NCBI RefSeq assembly: GCF_036507355.1
Contig: NZ_AP027877.1
Strand: one strand, 5' to 3'
Source: Escherichia coli
Lineage (GTDB): Bacteria; Pseudomonadota; Gammaproteobacteria; Enterobacterales; Enterobacteriaceae
Length of the DNA stretch: 64,000 nucleotides
Positions 2,181-29,568 of this stretch are shown in pieces (position 1 is the stretch's first letter; each line of letters starts with the position of its first letter). The notes beneath the pieces are model-generated. The model ran no database searches, was not told the DNA's origin, and saw nothing but the letters and a program-made list of their open reading frames with translations. The position numbers were made by a program, and so were the translations under genes.

Positions 2181-3374
2181 ATGACGAAAGTGACACGCGC
2201 AGTAATTGTGGGAGGCGGGATCGGCGGTGCGGCAACTGCGCTGTCACTGGCCCGCCTGGGGATCAAAGTGGTGCTGCTGGAAAAGGCGCATGAGATCGGT
2301 GAGATTGGCGCGGGCATCCAGTTGGGGCCAAATGCGTTTTCGGCGCTGGACAGCCTCGGCGTCGGCGAAGTTGCCCGCCAGCGCGCGGTGTTTACCGATC
2401 ACATTACCATGATGGATGCGGTGAACGCCGAAGAAGTGGTGTGCATTGAAACCGGGCAGGCTTTTCGTGACCATTTCGGCGGCCCTTACGCGGTGATCCA
2501 CCGGGTTGATATTCACGCCTCGGTGTGGGAAGCGGTACTGACGCATCCGGACGTGGAATATCACACCTCCACCAACGTCGTGGATATTCGCGAGACGGAA
2601 GACGATGTCACCGTGTTTGACGATCGCGGCAATAGCTGGACCGGCGATATTCTGATTGGCTGTGACGGCGTGAAGTCAGTGGTGCGCCAGAGCTTATTGG
2701 GCGATGCGCCGCGTGTCACCGGACATGTTGTCTACCGTGCGGTTATCGATCGTGCCGATATGCCGGAAGATTTGCGCATTAACGCACCGGTACTGTGGGC
2801 GGGGCCGCATTGTCACTTGGTGCATTACCCTTTGCGCGGCGGCAAGCAGTATAACCTGGTGGTAACATTCCACAGCCGCCAGCAGGAAGAGTGGGGCGTG
2901 AAGGATGGTAGTAAAGAGGAAGTGCTCTCTTACTTTGAAGGGATTCACCCCCGTCCGCGCCAGATGTTGGATAAACCGACTTCATGGCGACGCTGGTCAA
3001 CCGCTGACCGTGAACCGGTGGCGAAGTGGGGAACGAAGCGCATAACGCTTGTGGGCGATTCGGCCCATCCGGTGGCGCAATATATGGCGCAGGGAGCCTG
3101 TATGGCGCTGGAAGATGCAGTAACGCTGGGTAAGGCGCTGGCGCAGTGTGAGGGTGATGCGGCGCAAGCCTTTGCGCTGTATGAGTCGGTACGAATTCCG
3201 CGCACCGCGCGCATCGTCTGGTCGACCCGTGAAATGGGGCGGGTTTACCACGCCGCAGGGGTAGAACGCCAGGTACGTAATCTGCTGTGGAAAGGGAAAT
3301 CGCAGGCAGAATTTTATCGCGGCATGGAGTGGTTGTACGGCTGGAAAGAAGATAACTGTTTGCAACCACGCTAA
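2181..3374 (+). CDS. 3-hydroxybenzoate 6-hydroxylase (FAD-dependent aromatic monooxygenase; mhbM-like)
   Basis: 397-aa ORF; N-terminal FAD dinucleotide-binding motif VIVGGGIGGAATALSLARLGIKVVLLEK; RBS aggaga upstream. Confidence 0.7.
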   Translation: MTKVTRAVIVGGGIGGAATALSLARLGIKVVLLEKAHEIGEIGAGIQLGPNAFSALDSLGVGEVARQRAVFTDHITMMDAVNAEEVVCIETGQAFRDHFGGPYAVIHRVDIHASVWEAVLTHPDVEYHTSTNVVDIRETEDDVTVFDDRGNSWTGDILIGCDGVKSVVRQSLLGDAPRVTGHVVYRAVIDRADMPEDLRINAPVLWAGPHCHLVHYPLRGGKQYNLVVTFHSRQQEEWGVKDGSKEEVLSYFEGIHPRPRQMLDKPTSWRRWSTADREPVAKWGTKRITLVGDSAHPVAQYMAQGACMALEDAVTLGKALAQCEGDAAQAFALYESVRIPRTARIVWSTREMGRVYHAAGVERQVRNLLWKGKSQAEFYRGMEWLYGWKEDNCLQPR

Positions 3375-3533
3375 GCACTTCTTCACCCAATCAGGCGCAC
3401 GGGCGGTCCCCTCGCCCCTTCGGGAGAGGGTTAGGGTGAGGGTAAAAATCTTGCCCGAATTAATCAGTAAGTCAGTTTGTCTGCAAACACAGGAGGCGCT
3501 AACATAGCGCCTCATTTTTTTGCGGGTGATGAT

Positions 3534-4484
3534 ATGCGTGTGTTACTGGCTCCGATGGAGGGAGTGCTTGACTCTCTGGTGCGTGAATTGCTGACCGAAG
3601 TTAACGACTACGATCTGTGCATCACCGAGTTCGTCCGCGTGGTGGATCAACTGCTGCCGGTGAAAGTCTTTCATCGCATTTGCCCTGAGCTACAAAACGC
3701 CAGCCGGACACCATCCGGTACGCTGGTGCGCGTGCAGTTGTTGGGTCAGTTCCCACAATGGCTGGCAGAGAACGCCGCCCGTGCGGTGGAATTAGGTTCC
3801 TGGGGCGTGGATCTCAATTGCGGCTGCCCGTCGAAAACGGTTAACGGTAGCGGTGGTGGGGCGACGTTACTCAAAGATCCTGAACTCATCTACCAGGGTG
3901 CAAAAGCGATGCGTGAAGCTGTACCGGCGCATTTGCCCGTCAGCGTGAAAGTGCGTCTGGGCTGGGACAGCGGTGAGAAGAAATTTGAAATCGCCGATGC
4001 GGTTCAACAGGCTGGTGCTACGGAGCTGGTGGTGCATGGACGGACAAAAGAGCAGGGTTACCGCGCGGAGCATATTGACTGGCAGGCGATTGGCGAGATT
4101 CGCCAGCGGCTGAATATTCCGGTGATTGCCAACGGCGAAATCTGGGACTGGCAGAGCGCGCAACAATGCATGGCGATCAGCGGCTGCGACTCAGTGATGA
4201 TTGGTCGCGGGGCGCTCAATATTCCCAACCTGAGCCGGGTAGTAAAATATAACGAACCGCGAATGCCGTGGCCGGAGGTGGTTGCTTTGCTGCAAAAATA
4301 TACCCGTCTGGAAAAGCAGGGCGATACCGGGTTATATCACGTAGCGCGGATTAAACAGTGGTTGAGTTATTTGCGTAAAGAATACGATGAAGCAACAGAA
4401 TTATTTCAGCATGTTCGTGTGTTGAATAATTCCCCTGATATTGCAAGGGCTATTCAGGCAATTGATATCGGTAAGCTGCGATAA
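3534..4484 (+). CDS. dusC: tRNA-dihydrouridine synthase C
   Basis: N-terminus [13 protein letters not shown] and length (about 316 aa) match E. coli DusC; ORF-track start at 3477 is an upstream in-frame extension. Confidence 0.9.
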
Positions 4485-4871
4485 TAGTGGAATCGCAGTT
4501 TATCAGAGACAATGAATCGCTTATTCAGCTTCATCATCTTGTTGCGCTCCTTTCATGAGCTAAGCCACATATTGCCACTGGCGCAAGGAGCGCGCAGGGG
4601 GAGGACAATCGCCTCCTCCCCCTGCACCCCCGGGCTCTGGCGAACAAAATCGCCGCTGCGCGGTACCTTCAGCTTATCCCCTTCGGCTACCGGGTCGGGC
4701 GCGAGGAAACGTCCTTGTAAGACGCGCCCTCAGCCCACATCCATGTGGGCTGCCCCGGCCTTCGGGGAACGCTTCAGCGATTTTGACGCCACCAACACCG
4801 GAGCTGTTTGCAAATCAAGTACACAAAATATCTAGTTCCTGACCTGACAACTTATATGTCATATCTGATTT

Positions 4872-4955
4872 TTAAAATATCATCTTAAATACGCCAGTCA
4901 CCACCAGTAGCCCAATCAGGAAAATAATCAATACAGCCCAGAGTATAATTTTCAT
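4872..4955 (-). CDS. yohP: 27-aa small inner-membrane protein YohP
   Basis: Hand translation of minus strand gives MKIILWAVLIIFLIGLLVVTGVFKMIF; single transmembrane helix; too short for the ORF track. Confidence 0.7.
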   Translation of the reverse strand: MKIILWAVLIIFLIGLLVVTGVFKMIF

Positions 4956-5178
4956 TGGCGTTCCTTTATTTGTGAGTGCTGAATAAGTATAGGAAAAAAC
5001 GAAGCCCTTTGCCGTTATCCATAAACGATTAAGATAAATCGGAAGATATCATTCACTTAGTGTATATTTTTCTGGATATGTCGTTTTATTGCTACTGATG
5101 TATTGCCACGCGAAACTAAAAAATATATCGCAACACACGGTAATCTCCGCGCACCTTTTCTTACCTGATTATTCCCCC

Positions 5179-6615
5179 ATGAATCGTGATTCCTTTTATC
5201 CAGCCATCGCCTGTTTTCCGCTGTTACTGATGCTGGCCGGGTGTGCGCCTATGCATGAAACCCGCCAGGCGTTAAGCCAGCAAACGCCCGCTGCACAAGT
5301 TGACACCGCATTACCCACGGCGCTGAAAAATGGTTGGCCAGACAGCCAATGGTGGCTGGAGTATCACGATAATCAACTCACTTCCTTAATTAACAATGCA
5401 CTACAGAACGCACCGGATATGCAGGTGGCTGAACAGCGCATTCAGTTAGCTGAAGCCCAGGCGAAGGCAGTTGCTACTCAGGATGGTCCGCAGATCGACT
5501 TTTCTGCGGATATGGAGCGGCAAAAAATGTCGGCAGAAGGGCTAATGGGGCCGTTTGCTCTGAACGATCCGGCCGCAGGTACGACCGGTCCGTGGTACAC
5601 CAACGGAACTTTTGGCTTAACGGCGGGCTGGCATCTCGATATCTGGGGAAAGAATCGGGCGGAGGTTACTGCCCGCCTGGGTACGGTTAAAGCACGGGCG
5701 GCGGAACGCGAGCAAACCCGCCAATTGCTGGCTGGCAGCGTAGCCCGCCTGTACTGGGAGTGGCAAACCCAGGCGGCGTTAAACACGGTCTTGCAGCAAA
5801 TCGAAAAAGAGCAGAACACCATTATCGCGACCGATCGCCAGCTATATCAGAACGGGATTACTTCTTCAGTTGAAGGTGTGGAAACCGATATTAATGCCAG
5901 CAAAACCCGGCAGCAGCTCAACGATGTCGCGGGGAAAATGAAAATTATTGAGGCACGGTTAAGCGCACTTACAAATCACCAGACAAAGTCATTGAAGCTT
6001 AAACCGGTCGCGTTGCCGAAAGTGGCAAGCCAGCTTCCTGATGAACTGGGGTACTCCTTACTGGCCCGGCGGGCAGATTTGCAGGCGGCGCACTGGTACG
6101 TTGAGTCATCGCTAAGCACCATTGATGCGGCAAAAGCGGCATTTTATCCTGACATCAACCTGATGGCCTTCCTGCAACAGGATGCGTTGCACTTAAGCGA
6201 TCTGTTCCGTCATTCCGCGCAGCAAATGGGCGTTACGGCAGGCCTGACGCTACCCATTTTCGATAGTGGTCGTCTTAACGCCAATCTCGATATCGCAAAA
6301 GCTGAAAGCAACTTGTCTATCGCCAGCTACAACAAAGCGGTGGTTGAAGCGGTGAATGACGTGGCGCGGACAGCCAGTCAGGTTCAGACACTTGCGGAGA
6401 AAAACCAGCATCAGGCGCAAATTGAGCGCGATGCCTTGCGTGTGGTAGGTCTTGCGCAGGCGCGCTTTAACGCGGGCATCATTGCTGGTTCCCGCGTCAG
6501 CGAAGCCAGAATCCCCGCGTTGCGTGAGCGGGCCAATGGCCTGTTATTGCAAGGGCAGTGGCTGGATGCCTCCATTCAACTCACTGGTGCGTTGGGCGGG
6601 GGTTACAAACGCTGA
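5179..6615 (+). CDS. mdtQ: outer-membrane efflux lipoprotein (OMF family), apparently intact
   Basis: Lipobox LLLMLAGC after start MNRDSF; 478-aa OMF/TolC-like sequence with no internal stop. Confidence 0.8.
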   Translation: MNRDSFYPAIACFPLLLMLAGCAPMHETRQALSQQTPAAQVDTALPTALKNGWPDSQWWLEYHDNQLTSLINNALQNAPDMQVAEQRIQLAEAQAKAVATQDGPQIDFSADMERQKMSAEGLMGPFALNDPAAGTTGPWYTNGTFGLTAGWHLDIWGKNRAEVTARLGTVKARAAEREQTRQLLAGSVARLYWEWQTQAALNTVLQQIEKEQNTIIATDRQLYQNGITSSVEGVETDINASKTRQQLNDVAGKMKIIEARLSALTNHQTKSLKLKPVALPKVASQLPDELGYSLLARRADLQAAHWYVESSLSTIDAAKAAFYPDINLMAFLQQDALHLSDLFRHSAQQMGVTAGLTLPIFDSGRLNANLDIAKAESNLSIASYNKAVVEAVNDVARTASQVQTLAEKNQHQAQIERDALRVVGLAQARFNAGIIAGSRVSEARIPALRERANGLLLQGQWLDASIQLTGALGGGYKR

Positions 6616-8883: not shown

Positions 8884-9056
8884 AAAGTTCTTTGACGTTG
8901 CATTGCTGGCGTAAATGTCAGCAATGCAGCATTTCCTCACGATTCTCCTTTGACGATCGCACTTTTTGCTCGTTATGATGGCGTCGCTAGCCTCAGTAAA
9001 TCCTTACTCCGGCGGTGCGCAACCCGTGCGCGTGAACCACTATCTGAATGCTCATC

Positions 9057-9989
9057 ATGCCGAAATTTCGAGTTTCTTTATTTAGCCTGGCCCTGATGCT
9101 GGCTGTGCCTTTGGCACCGCAGGCCGTTGCGAAAACGGCAGCCGCTACCACCGCTTCACAACCGGAAATTGCCTCCGGTAGCGCGATGATTGTTGATCTG
9201 AATACCAACAAAGTGATCTATTCGAACCACCCGGATCTGGTGCGTCCGATTGCGTCTATCAGCAAATTAATGACCGCGATGGTTGTGCTGGATGCACGAC
9301 TGCCGCTGGATGAAAAACTAAAAGTGGATATCAGCCAGACGCCGGAGATGAAAGGGGTCTATTCGCGCGTACGACTGAACAGCGAAATCAGCCGTAAAGA
9401 TATGCTGTTGCTGGCGTTGATGTCTTCAGAAAACCGCGCGGCGGCAAGCCTTGCGCACCATTATCCCGGTGGTTACAAAGCCTTTATTAAGGCGATGAAT
9501 GCGAAAGCGAAATCGCTCGGAATGAACAACACGCGCTTTGTTGAACCGACCGGATTGTCGGTGCATAACGTTTCAACCGCCCGTGACTTAACCAAACTGC
9601 TCATTGCCAGCAAACAATATCCGTTGATCGGGCAGTTAAGTACTACCCGGGAAGATATGGCAACCTTCTCTAACCCGACGTATACGCTGCCGTTCCGCAA
9701 TACTAATCATCTGGTGTATCGCGATAACTGGAATATTCAGTTAACCAAAACCGGCTTTACCAATGCGGCGGGCCATTGTCTGGTGATGCGTACGGTTATC
9801 AATAATAAACCGGTGGCGCTGGTAGTGATGGATGCGTTTGGCAAATATACCCATTTTGCCGATGCCAGCCGCCTGCGTACCTGGATTGAAACCGGTAAAG
9901 TGATGCCTGTTCCGGCAGCAGCGTTGAGCTATAAAAAACAAAAAGCCGCCCAAATGGCGGCGGCGGGGCAGACGGCACAGAACGATTAA
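9057..9989 (+). CDS. pbpG: D-alanyl-D-alanine endopeptidase (PBP7)
   Basis: N-terminus [25 protein letters not shown] (signal peptide); SxxK active-site motif SISKLMT; 310 aa. Confidence 0.9.
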
Positions 9990-16569: not shown

Positions 16570-17488
16570 ATTTAGCCATGTCAGCAAACTGTTCGGCGCA
16601 CAAAAAGCCGTTAACGATCTCAATCTCAATTTTCAGGAAGGGAGTTTTTCGGTGCTGATTGGCACATCTGGCTCCGGTAAATCCACCACCCTGAAAATGA
16701 TTAACCGCCTGGTGGAGCATGACAGCGGAGAGATCCGCTTTGCCGGAGAAGAAATTCGCTCGCTGCCAGTACTGGAGTTGCGCCGCCGGATGGGCTATGC
16801 CATTCAATCTATTGGCCTGTTCCCCCACTGGAGCGTGGCGCAAAATATCGCTACCGTGCCGCAATTACAAAAATGGTCGCGGGCGCGGATTGACGATCGT
16901 ATCGACGAATTAATGGCGCTACTGGGGCTGGAGGCGAATTTGCGTGAGCGTTATCCGCATCAGCTTTCCGGCGGTCAGCAGCAACGTGTGGGAGTGGCAC
17001 GCGCACTGGCTGCCGATCCGCAAGTCTTACTGATGGATGAACCCTTTGGCGCGCTGGACCCGGTAACGCGTGGCGCGTTGCAACAAGAGATGACGCGCAT
17101 TCACCGTTTGCTGGGGCGTACCATTGTGCTGGTCACTCATGATATTGATGAGGCGCTACGGCTGGCAGAACATCTGGTATTGATGGATCACGGTGAAGTG
17201 GTGCAGCAGGGGAATCCGCTGACGATGCTGACTCGTCCGGCGAATGATTTTGTCCGCCAGTTTTTTGGACGTAGTGAACTGGGTGTGCGCCTGCTTTCGT
17301 TACGTAGTGTGGCGGATTACGTGCGTCGCGAAGAACGGGCAGAAGGTGAGGCACTGGCAGAAGAGATGACGCTGCGCGATGCGCTCTCCCTGTTTGTCGC
17401 GCGGGGATGCGAGGTGCTGCCGGTGGTGAACACGCAGGGCCAGCCTAGCGGCACGCTGCATTTTCAGGATCTGCTGGTGGAGGCGTAA
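16562..17488 (+). CDS. yehX: ABC transporter ATP-binding protein
   Basis: Walker [13 protein letters not shown] signature LSGGQQQRV; overlaps yehY by 8 nt. Confidence 0.85.
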
Positions 17489-17492
17489 GCGT

Positions 17493-18224
17493 ATGAAGAT
17501 GTTGCGCGATCCGCTGTTCTGGCTCATTGCTCTTTTTGTGGCGCTGATTTTCTGGCTACCTTACAGCCAGCCGCTTTTTGCTGCCTTGTTCCCACAACTG
17601 CCACGACCCGTTTATCAGCAAGAAAGTTTTGCCGCTCTGGCACTGGCTCATTTCTGGCTGGTGGGAATTTCGAGTTTGTTTGCGGTGATCATTGGTACTG
17701 GTGCCGGAATTGCAGTCACTCGCCCGTGGGGCGCGGAATTTCGCCCACTGGTGGAAACTATTGCTGCCGTTGGACAGACTTTTCCGCCCGTCGCGGTGCT
17801 GGCGATCGCCGTTCCGGTGATCGGGTTTGGTCTGCAACCAGCGATTATCGCCTTGATCCTTTACGGTGTGCTGCCCGTCCTGCAGGCGACACTTGCCGGG
17901 CTGGGAGCGATTGATGCCAGCGTGACAGAAGTTGCGAAAGGTATGGGAATGAGTCGAGGTCAGCGACTGCGTAAGGTCGAGCTACCGCTGGCGGCTCCGG
18001 TGATTCTGGCGGGCGTGCGAACTTCGGTGATTATCAACATTGGTACGGCGACGATCGCCTCAACGGTAGGGGCCAGCACGCTGGGTACGCCCATCATCAT
18101 CGGGCTTAGCGGATTTAATACCGCGTATGTGATCCAGGGGGCGTTACTGGTGGCACTGGCGGCGATCATCGCAGACCGCCTGTTTGAAAGGCTGGTGCAG
18201 GCGCTTAGCCAGCACGCAAAATAA
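17493..18224 (+). CDS. yehW: ABC transporter permease
   Basis: 243-aa polytopic membrane protein, 4 nt after yehX. Confidence 0.85.
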
Positions 18225-18312
18225 AGGTATAACCTGCGAGCATGACGCCACCAATTCCGCCTAACGCCATAAACAGGAACAGGGCGATGACCCCAATTTT
18301 AGCTATGCGCAT
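18205..18312 (-). CDS. yohO: 35-aa small membrane protein YohO
   Basis: Hand translation [35 protein letters not shown]; its 3' end overlaps the yehW stop on the opposite strand. Confidence 0.6.
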
Positions 18313-18371
18313 AATGCACTCCTTATGTTAACGAAAGGATTGTACAGTAAAGCGCATTTGTTAACGAATCA

Positions 18372-19103
18372 TTAAATGTCGAGTGGGAAAATATCATGGC
18401 CTTGTTCTTGCCAACTGGTGAGTTGCTGCTGTTGGGCGGAGGTTCGATTTTCACCGCACCACACCAGCAATGTACGGCCTTCGAATAGTTCAGGGCGTAG
18501 TTGATTGAGCGAATGGGCGAGGACATCAATGCGCCATCCTTGTTGACTGGCAATCCAGCCCTCCAGCCACAGACGGATGGTATCCTGAATATTCCAGCCA
18601 ACCACCAGCGCATCTTTACCCTGTTTTTTACGTGCCGAAGCCAGACAAATGGCGATGTAGTTGATCAGTACGCCGTCGAGGATCGCCAGCAGCGCCTGGA
18701 GAGTCGGTTGTTGGCACTGAAGCCGTCGGCGCAGAGGAATAAACAGATGTGTGGTGAGCGTCTGGGCGGGGTAATCCTGACCGCGCTCTTTGATCCACGT
18801 TCGCAGGCTATGCAGATTGCCGCTTTGCAGGTAGGTCAGTAATGTTTCTTGCTGATCGCGCCAGCCGTTCTGCACATCAACATTTTCATTACTGAGCAGC
18901 ATTTTAACTTTGCTGACCTGCACGCCGTTGTCGATCCAGCGTTTGATCTCGCGGATACGGTCAATATCGGCATCGTTGAACAGCCGATGACCGCCGTCTG
19001 TCCGTTGCGATTTCAGCAATCCGTAACGCCTCTGCCACGCGCGTAACGTGACAGGGTTAATATCACAAAGCAACGCCACTTCACCAATTGTGTAAAGCGC
19101 CAT
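18372..19103 (-). CDS. mlrA: MerR-family transcriptional regulator (curli/csgD activator)
   Basis: N-terminal MerR HTH MALYTIGEVALLCDINPVTLRAWQRRYGL, 243 aa. Confidence 0.85.
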   Translation of the reverse strand: MALYTIGEVALLCDINPVTLRAWQRRYGLLKSQRTDGGHRLFNDADIDRIREIKRWIDNGVQVSKVKMLLSNENVDVQNGWRDQQETLLTYLQSGNLHSLRTWIKERGQDYPAQTLTTHLFIPLRRRLQCQQPTLQALLAILDGVLINYIAICLASARKKQGKDALVVGWNIQDTIRLWLEGWIASQQGWRIDVLAHSLNQLRPELFEGRTLLVWCGENRTSAQQQQLTSWQEQGHDIFPLDI

Positions 19104-19324
19104 CGTCTCACCCTTGCTCGCGAGGTCCCAGTTTAACTTTAGACGCAGTTTTGCGAACCAGGTAGTTTTGCCCGTTTTTTGTGCATTTATAGGGTGATTT
19201 TATTTTTGCCAGGCGATTTTGAGTGATCGTACTCACGAATTCTCATTTTTCTGCAAGAGTTCAAAGAAAGTTAAACGCAGGCAATGTATGTTACGCGTTT
19301 TAAAGGGAAGTGTGGTTTGCGGGT

Positions 19325-29482: not shown

Positions 29483-29568
29483 AATAAAAAAACCTGCTGG
29501 TGAGGCAGGTTCTTTTATTTACTATTTTCAGGCCTAACACCACAGCCTGTGCAACATCGTGTTCCAAC
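29483..29568 (-). ncRNA. predicted antisense sRNA antitoxin (OrzO-like), roughly 85 nt
   Basis: Minus-strand -10 TATAAT (plus 29575-29580) placing the start near 29568; minus-strand intrinsic terminator (hairpin 29491-29511 plus U-run 29481-29490); its 5' end is complementary to the toxin leader at 29716-29734 (19 nt, 1 mismatch). Confidence 0.5.

Follow-up and report, generated by a model that had tools for sequence, protein, structure and literature searches.

The small membrane protein gene yohO and its tail-to-tail overlap with the convergent permease gene yehW in Escherichia coli

The closest described counterpart of the gene analysed here is yohO of Escherichia coli K-12 (b4542), a member of the YohO family (UPF0387; NCBIfam NF010225). 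In the RefSeq annotation of K-12, yohO (2215657-2215764) and the convergent gene yehW (2215745-2216476) overlap by 20 nt; our gene encodes the identical 35-aa protein, lies likewise between mlrA and yehW and shares this overlap, and no difference was found. The YohO protein has been detected by top-down mass spectrometry (PMC12529367), and Ribo-seq coverage of yohO was reported in a study that described it as an already known small protein bound to the membrane and cited an earlier tagging of YohO, Hemm 2008 (bioRxiv 10.1101/2020.05.05.079178). This evidence that YohO is made comes from the literature on the identical K-12 protein, not from the strain of the present DNA. Term-seq placed a 3' end labelled "primary yohO / antisense yehW" at K-12 position 2215813 (+), according to supplementary file 1 of Adams et al. 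2021 (PMC7815308), with scores of 861 and 1115 in two rows; the file has one tab per growth condition, and yohO occurs three times in it.

Two general models are also relevant to this locus. The first is the convergent excludon (the Lasa/Cossart concept; PMC12288877). ExcludonFinder (2025, PMC12288877) listed yohO-yehW among 165 convergent excludons found in at least 50% of 58 MG1655 transcriptomes, its calls being made from coverage only, without pair-specific validation. Like other convergent excludons, yohO and yehW are convergent neighbours with overlapping transcripts, but here the coding sequences overlap and not the UTRs only; moreover, mutually exclusive expression and RNase III processing define a functional excludon, and in this sense yohO-yehW is a candidate. 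The second is the model of Dar and Sorek 2018 (PMC6061677), in which Rho-dependent transcripts end just after stable stem-loops that lack a U-tract and protect the RNA from exonucleases, with rut sites just downstream. The gene, its translation, its mRNA 3' end and its transcript overlap with yehW are already in public annotation or papers, and as it stands the pair matters little. The additions made here are incremental: the conservation of the overlap in one frame relation in two families, a coding constraint of YohO that dominates the shared bases and supplies the yehW stop, a predicted promoter of yohO itself with a repeated TTCGTTAACA box, and putative 3'-end signals that lie antisense within yehW.

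The features of the junction in the window, the whole stretch of 64,000 nt that was analysed, were as follows.

17493 to 18224, plus strand: yehW coding sequence, 243 aa (ORF list and RefSeq annotation of the matching locus).
18205 to 18312, minus strand: yohO coding sequence, 35 codons, ATG start and TAA stop (ORF list and translation).
18205 to 18224, both strands: tail-to-tail overlap of 20 nt, with YohO F30-I-L-R-A-G-stop opposite YehW L-S-Q-H-A-K-stop.
18319 to 18324, minus strand: Shine-Dalgarno sequence AAGGAG, 6 nt upstream of the yohO ATG (sequence).
18372 to 19103, minus strand: mlrA, the same-strand upstream neighbour, with its stop 59 nt before the yohO ATG (ORF list and RefSeq).

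These positions agree exactly with the initial annotation, made from the letters alone, which had placed a 35-codon yohO frame on the minus strand, overlapping the last 20 nt of yehW, and had named a second small gene, yohP; both names were right according to RefSeq and to the protein models (NF010225 for YohO; NF011345 and Pfam PF25659 for YohP). It had regarded a missing translation signal as the observation that would speak against these small genes, and for yohO the published mass spectrometry and Ribo-seq already contradict this. The yohO product scored 80.1 bits against the NCBIfam equivalog NF010225 (cutoff 57), with residues 1-35 on profile positions 1-35, and it is identical over all 35 residues to K-12 YohO; Pfam holds no YohO model. 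The neighbouring gene yehW encodes a permease of the OsmF-YehYXW glycine betaine ABC transporter and is the last gene of its operon. In RefSeq, E. coli FDN-9 shows the local order osmF-yehY-yehX-yehW (+), yohO and mlrA (-), btsS-btsR (+), with the 20-nt overlap as well. The yohO region matched 5,425 of 5,426 complete E. coli genomes, and among the matches listed yohO was annotated between mlrA and yehW. The gene in the window is the K-12 yohO carried by another E. coli-like strain. An unusual local divergence at yohO was considered and rejected, as the 30 differences from K-12 in 2201 positions, none of them within 18146-18378, amount to ordinary polymorphism.

The YohO family is narrow. When 1.84 billion representative proteins were searched for homologues, 17 clusters were recovered, and several of them resemble gene calls that are frameshifted or chimeric. 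Scanning one genome per species gave 136 confirmed yohO loci, and 80 of these were kept, all from Enterobacteriaceae and Erwiniaceae (genera including Escherichia, Salmonella, Citrobacter, Klebsiella, Raoultella, Kosakonia, Phytobacter, Trabulsiella, Pluralibacter, Shimwellia, Erwinia and Pantoea). Most of the 80 loci held the order mlrA, yohO, convergent yehW. In 78 unique nucleotide sequences, the yohO frame had a dN/dS of about 0.13, compared with 0.30-3.5 for the five alternative frames, and the entropy at codon positions 1, 2 and 3 of yohO was 0.57, 0.23 and 1.22, respectively. Strong purifying selection thus acts on yohO as a protein. Since the product matches the NCBIfam equivalog, purifying selection is seen in the yohO frame only and the protein has been detected in published work, yohO is a real gene whose translation product is an inner-membrane protein of 35 residues with a single helix. 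Its Shine-Dalgarno sequence was nearly invariant as A(A/C)GGAG among the Enterobacteriaceae loci.

Comparison of 52 distinct YohO proteins showed that M1, K5, G18, G19, I20, G22, V23, M24, L25, G27 and Y28 were invariant and that F12, M15 and A16 were nearly so, with GGI(G/S)GVML(A/T)GY as the invariant core motif. The AF2 model of YohO contains one helix, residues 3-33, with a pLDDT of 91.5; the mean Kyte-Doolittle hydropathy over residues 6-32 was 2.17, and basic residues are located at each end. In this model, small residues would form two adjacent faces of the helix, G18-G22-A26 and G19-V23-G27. GxxxG and glycine-zipper motifs are linked to tight helix-helix packing, and by analogy the invariant core of YohO suggests specific packing of the helix with itself or with a partner protein. 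A chain related to YohO was not found in the PDB, and the literature searched gave no paper describing a YohO function. With a deeply conserved sequence and an unusually invariant transmembrane core, YohO is a reasonable candidate for partner finding.

The tail-to-tail overlap was present in all 70 loci in which both ORF ends could be scored, with the following lengths.

20 nt: 32 loci.
26 nt: 31 loci.
17 nt: 1 locus.
14 nt: 6 loci, all from Erwinia or Pantoea.

All of these lengths equal 2 modulo 3, so the antisense frame relation is constant and position 3 of the yohO codon faces position 2 of the yehW codon. The differences in length were mainly due to the length of the YohO C-terminus (34, 35 or 37 aa); in the six loci with 14 nt, the yehW stop also sits one codon later. 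The arrangement is thus no younger than the last ancestor shared by the sampled Enterobacteriaceae and Erwiniaceae loci. Within the overlap, the entropy was 0.82-0.90 at yohO position 3 as against 0.12-0.17 at yehW position 3, and immediately next to the overlap yehW was highly variable at each of its three codon positions. The shared bases are thus dictated by the codons of YohO, not by those of YehW. YehW itself was conserved up to an F-E-R/K-L motif; between this motif and the stop lie 7, 9 or 11 residues of poor conservation, and these last 7-11 residues are free to vary.

In every one of the 70 loci, the stop codon of yehW equalled the reverse complement of positions 2 and 3 of YohO codon 30 together with position 1 of the next, isoleucine, codon, with codon 31 taking the place of codon 30 in the six loci with the 14-nt overlap. 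The YohO dicodon opposite the yehW stop encodes Phe, Val or Leu followed by Ile: TTT-A, GTT-A and CTT-A give a yehW TAA (57 loci), and TTC-A gives TGA (13 loci). Because each Phe codon yields a stop, synonymous drift in yohO spares the yehW terminus. The simplest reading is a tight ancestral packing, in which the yehW frame reads a dispensable tail until the conserved dicodon of YohO gives it a stop. The pair may serve as an example of overlap sharing in which the small gene sets the common bases and the dispensable tail of the large gene reads what results.

The yehW gene adjoined yohO in 71 of the 80 loci, and in the genomes of the other nine it may be located elsewhere. The exceptions, including those at the mlrA side, were grouped as follows.

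No adjacent yehW, 9 loci: L029, L034, L037, L047, L052, L069, L073, L078 and L079.
No adjacent mlrA match, yehW kept, 5 loci: L032, L044, L051, L054 and L059.
Neither neighbour, 6 loci: L029, L034, L037, L047, L069 and L073.

In all, 11 loci lacked an adjacent mlrA match. Several of the loci without adjacent yehW belong to Erwinia or Pantoea. The neighbours in the yehW-less loci were unrelated (DUF3833, CFA synthase, generic MFS, GT1 and NUDIX proteins), and in the seven such loci examined yohO was followed after 10-40 nt by a GC-rich hairpin of its own. Judged from these contexts, yohO appears to behave as an autonomous unit. An MFS protein of about 492 aa that follows yohO in L029, L034, L073 and L078 was considered as a ProP-like osmoprotectant link and rejected, being a generic MFS only: its best NCBIfam scores were sub-threshold (107-112 bits, cutoff 419) and its PDB matches were generic.

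Upstream of yohO, a gap of 58-60 nt to mlrA was seen in 38 of the 69 loci where mlrA was matched, within a range of 51-1790 nt, and the 59-nt gap was strongly conserved in 42 aligned loci. The following elements were predicted in it.

18339 to 18344, minus strand: putative yohO -10 element TACAAT (TATAAT in most genera), from the conservation of TAnAnT.
18359 to 18368, minus strand: distal TTCGTTAACA box in the -35 zone, a candidate regulator site, with TTCATTAACA conserved at 90% or more.
18326 to 18335, minus strand: proximal TTCGTTAACA box, directly 5' of the Shine-Dalgarno sequence and at the inferred mRNA 5' end, conserved as GTTAACAT.

The T, A, A and T of TAnAnT were invariant in the 42 aligned loci, including five without mlrA upstream, and the -10 element, the TTCATTAACA block and the GTTAACAT block were all kept in these five. 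GTTAACAT was kept in most Enterobacteriaceae loci. The 10-mer TTCGTTAACA occurs twice in the 64 kb, both times at yohO and 33 nt apart, where 0.6 copies are expected by chance. These elements point to an independent yohO promoter with a putative transcription start near 18332, and the TTCGTTAACA boxes are a possible regulator site; alternatively, yohO might be co-transcribed with mlrA. The predicted -35 element is weak, the best match, TTAACA, lying only 14 nt from the -10 element. Two other candidates in this gap were set aside. An MlrA operator was not supported: the binding site of MlrA contains TGTACAAT, which E. coli reads in the yohO -10 region, but other genera read GTATAAT there and the upstream half-site matches poorly. 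An anti-Shine-Dalgarno hairpin was also considered, in which UCCUU (18338-18334) could pair with the Shine-Dalgarno sequence in mlrA read-through RNA, but CCUU was conserved only in Escherichia and Salmonella.

Downstream of yohO, the 3'-end features all lie within the coding sequence of yehW. The positions of the Term-seq and Rho sites in the window were converted through K-12 coordinates (yohO end 2215764).

18156, minus strand: steady-state yohO 3' end as mapped by Term-seq (Adams et al. 2021), 49 nt beyond the stop.
18161 to 18180, minus strand: hairpin of the yohO 3' UTR, GGCGGUC-N6-GAUCGCC, antisense to the yehW codons A-A-I-I-A-D-R.
18125 to 18164, minus strand: C-rich, G-poor, rut-like stretch just beyond the hairpin (+41 to +80).
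17974, minus strand: region of Rho termination of yohO-sense read-through, with its peak near this position, antisense within yehW.

Ending 49 nt beyond its stop codon, the yohO RNA thus has a stretch complementary to the final 69 nt of the yehW ORF. In the initial annotation the two convergent transcripts were said to overlap of necessity; on the yohO side this was borne out by the Term-seq 3' end and by ExcludonFinder, while for the yehW side it is read from the geometry of the coding sequences only. No yehW 3' end occurred in the Term-seq tables of Adams et al. 2021 (PMC7815308).

The hairpin at 18161-18180 had a folding energy of -12.5 kcal/mol on the yohO-sense strand, and the yehW-sense strand folded differently and more weakly (-9.0). 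It has no U-tract; the 3' end at 18156 lies 4-5 nt after it, and the next sequence is AGUGCCACC. Across the 70 loci, 78.5% of the cells were paired; the core pairs were kept, with some G-C to C-G swaps, and the outer pairs were broken in 30-45% of the loci. The conservation of the hairpin is suggestive only, as it is confounded by the conserved YehW peptide on the opposite strand. The stretch at 18125-18164 had a C content of 0.45, a G content of 0.20 and a C/G ratio of 2.25, compared with 0.31, 0.26 and 1.2 for the antisense-yehW baseline. The Rho region is given at K-12 2215995 (+) with a Rho score of 5.64 and p 9.4e-16 in supplementary file 2 of Adams et al. 2021 (PMC7815308), and its position is coarse because the region was defined with 800-nt windows.

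An intrinsic terminator between the genes or just past them was rejected by a consensus scan and by folding: the scan found none downstream of either stop, its sole match at the junction lying inside the yohO coding sequence, and the folds of the junction were no better than those of shuffled sequences on either strand (z 0.23 and -0.50). The locus resembles the transcripts described by Dar and Sorek 2018 (PMC6061677) in that the yohO 3' end follows a GC-rich hairpin without U-tract, with a C-rich tract and a bicyclomycin-sensitive region downstream; it differs from their model in that another gene's coding sequence houses the hairpin and the putative rut site, both in antisense orientation. 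Read in this way, the small gene yohO would have its 3'-end signals written inside the coding sequence of its neighbour yehW.

Taken together, these results support an explanation that we hold to be probable, in which yohO is a genuine, tightly packed gene with its own promoter whose RNA is ended by Rho and then trimmed. The gene is packed so close to the 3' end of convergent yehW that the two frames share 20 nt. Its transcription would start at a conserved promoter of yohO itself, in the 59 nt that separate it from mlrA, and the resulting RNA would measure about 177 nt. Because there is no terminator room between the genes, transcription would continue antisense into yehW, where Rho would stop it within a few hundred nt, and exonucleases would then trim the RNA back to the GC-rich hairpin, which would give the 3' end 49 nt past the stop. 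This 3' end could also come from processing rather than from Rho termination and trimming.

The alternative that survives best is a functional convergent excludon, in which yohO, together with mlrA read-through, and osmF-yehYXW would be mutually repressive, by collision of polymerases and by RNase III cutting a duplex of at least 69 nt, and in which selection would keep the overlap. We regard this reading, taken as a whole with its mechanism, as possible but unlikely. The pair has the geometry of an excludon, being convergent, with a 20-nt coding overlap, a yohO 3' end reaching 69 nt into the yehW ORF and further read-through limited by Rho, and it is listed in the E. coli excludome, where calls are made from coverage only. 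The overlap was lost in none of the 70 loci, whereas the spacer between mlrA and yohO ranges over 51-1790 nt; in addition, a single C-to-T substitution at 18198, which turns CAG into TAG, would cut 8 residues from YehW, remove the coding overlap and leave YohO untouched, and no lineage ends yehW before the overlap. An overlap that is never lost could thus reflect selection for the overlap rather than neutral packing. However, the coding constraint on YohO and the unconstrained tail of YehW fully explain the overlap, and where yehW is absent yohO persists with its own hairpin, which argues that the overlap is dispensable for yohO. Furthermore, both sides are reported to be sigma-S dependent, which would mean co-induction and not exclusion.

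A more elaborate form of this reading combines the overlap, the hairpin and the rut-like tract into a selected cis-antisense module, which would link expression on the mlrA-yohO side to how stable the osmF-yehYXW mRNA is or how its 3' end forms, while YohO might act on YehY/YehW through its glycine-rich helix face. It is doubtful that all of this holds; if true, it would be a cis-antisense module conserved across Enterobacteriaceae and Erwiniaceae.

The direct partnership of YohO with the transporter was considered separately. By this reading, YohO would be a dedicated small subunit or regulator of the YehY/YehW permease, in the manner of KdpF, AcrZ and MgtS, and the adjacency of the genes would reflect the partnership. 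YohO resembles KdpF, AcrZ, MgtS and CydX in having a single transmembrane helix in fewer than 50 aa, a gene beside a transporter operon and conserved faces of small residues. That yohO adjoins yehW in 71 of 80 loci spread over two families agrees with such a role, as do a transmembrane core more invariant than a membrane anchor needs and small-residue faces typical of tight packing. On the other hand, yohO is convergent to the transporter operon and stands outside it, so that it is not co-transcribed with the operon as in those systems, and nine loci keep it without an adjacent yehW and among unrelated neighbours. No relative of YohO occurs in the PDB entries, and the literature searched shows no link between YohO and YehY/YehW. 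We consider the partnership quite improbable.

Far less credible is a type I toxin-like hydrophobic peptide restrained by the antisense 3' region of yehW. YohO is indeed small, hydrophobic and single-helical, its transcript overlaps an antisense gene, and the neighbouring YohP depolarises membranes when produced. Against this, yohO is single-copy and deeply syntenic and is under strong purifying selection, it carries a strong and unobstructed Shine-Dalgarno sequence, and its protein was detected in ordinary cultures. There is no dedicated antisense sRNA, and yohO is retained without yehW; Rfam showed no antitoxin at the yohO locus, its only match in the window being OrzO-P at 29486-29561. The last reading, a chance open frame antisense to the yehW end, draws on the abundance of short frames (the 4.5 kb around yohO contain 67 frames of 20 aa or more, so that an ORF of such length is by itself not above chance), but it is already refuted by the dN/dS of 0.13 in the yohO frame only, the curated equivalog match, retention in loci without both neighbours, the mass spectrometry and Ribo-seq evidence, and an overlap with yehW of just 20 of the 108 nt, and its probability is close to nil.

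The window contains a second gene of this size class, at the position and under the name that the initial annotation had given.

4872 to 4955, minus strand: yohP, a 27-codon small membrane protein gene, translation MKIILWAVLIIFLIGLLVVTGVFKMIF* (Pfam, NCBIfam and RefSeq).

Its translation is that of YohP, with 50.6 bits for Pfam PF25659 (cutoff 27) and 67.3 bits for NCBIfam NF011345 (cutoff 58), and RefSeq annotates it next to mdtQ. YohO and YohP (Pfam PF25659) are both single-helix E. coli membrane proteins of fewer than 40 aa, but they have no sequence relation, and only YohP has functional studies in the literature searched; several papers have dealt with its SRP-dependent insertion, the membrane depolarisation that occurs when it is produced, and ppGpp accumulation.

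The putative -10 hexamer of yohO was flanked by a repeated box, with one copy located on either side of it.
18326-18335, minus strand: TTCGTTAACA, first exact copy in the sequence
18359-18368, minus strand: TTCGTTAACA, second exact copy
The spacing of the two copies was 33 nt, and each contained the palindrome GTTAAC. No further copies of TTCGTTAACA were present in the 64 kb window, and the boxes were kept across genera. The AAGGAG sequence was near-invariant before yohO in Enterobacteriaceae, whereas no recognisable Shine-Dalgarno sequence was found before the gene in the Erwinia and Pantoea loci L056, L065, L068-L070, L072 and L080, an example of the sequence upstream of the ATG in these loci being ACGGGCAACGGC. 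Judged from these upstream sequences, translation initiation of yohO may be different in the Erwinia/Pantoea family.

Three other loci in the yohO comparison were unusual. In Escherichia sp. MOD1-EC7003 (L005, about 3109-3230), osmF, yehY, yehX and most of yehW were naturally deleted, the last ~46 codons being all that remained of yehW. yohO was retained together with the overlap and the 3' hairpin, and sequence divergence set in roughly 64 nt beyond the stop codon of yohO. The locus labelled Chryseobacterium sp. 18061 (L067) was a contig with an Enterobacteriaceae mlrA-yohO-yehW arrangement. It shared its gene coordinates, its YohO protein and the sequence upstream of yohO with Citrobacter sp. 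18056 (L066), which belongs to the same project; the L067 assembly is probably mislabelled or contaminated. The overlap of Trabulsiella odontotermitis strain 01 (L057) was not scorable because of ambiguous bases and broken frames in its yehW/yehX region (3200-4600), and these defects look like a matter of assembly quality rather than biology.

Signals were also located inside the two neighbors of yohO.
~19065, minus strand: 3' end within mlrA, 38 nt into the ORF (Term-seq, K-12 2214904; Adams et al. 2021)
19099-19077, minus strand: terminator-like hairpin, CGCTTTACACAATTGGTGAAGTG then GCGTTGCTTT (terminator scan)
Inside yehW, ~17493-18224: genomic SELEX peak of a minor sigma factor (Shimada et al. 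2017, PMC5493296)
The scan-found hairpin coincided with the mlrA-internal 3' end, which could be produced by premature termination early in mlrA. The SELEX peak, which appears in the extracytoplasmic sigma section of that paper as type D with an intensity of 4.0 and with yohO and yehX flanking, could represent an intragenic promoter.

Structured RNAs were found elsewhere in the window by Rfam.
29486-29561, minus strand: OrzO-P antitoxin RNA, RF02083 (99.9 bits; gathering score 60)
8972-9052, plus strand: Peptidase-S11 cis-regulatory RNA motif, RF03039 (72.8 bits)
53857-53953, plus strand: TPP riboswitch, RF00059 (71.2 bits)
The RF03039 motif ended at the start of a 313-aa ORF (9048-9989), and the ORFs 53988-54776 and 54773-55573 lay just downstream of the TPP riboswitch. 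The OrzO-P match places a zor-orz type I toxin-antitoxin locus in the window. A locus of this kind is typically found in O157:H7-like strains and is not known from K-12. The yohP region (4600-5300) showed 100% identity to O157:H7 strains, while the best identity among 5,426 complete E. coli genomes was 98.2% for 10000-34000 and 99.1% for 17400-19200. By this contrast, either the source strain lies outside the 5,426-genome collection or, compared with O157:H7, the window has a mosaic make-up.
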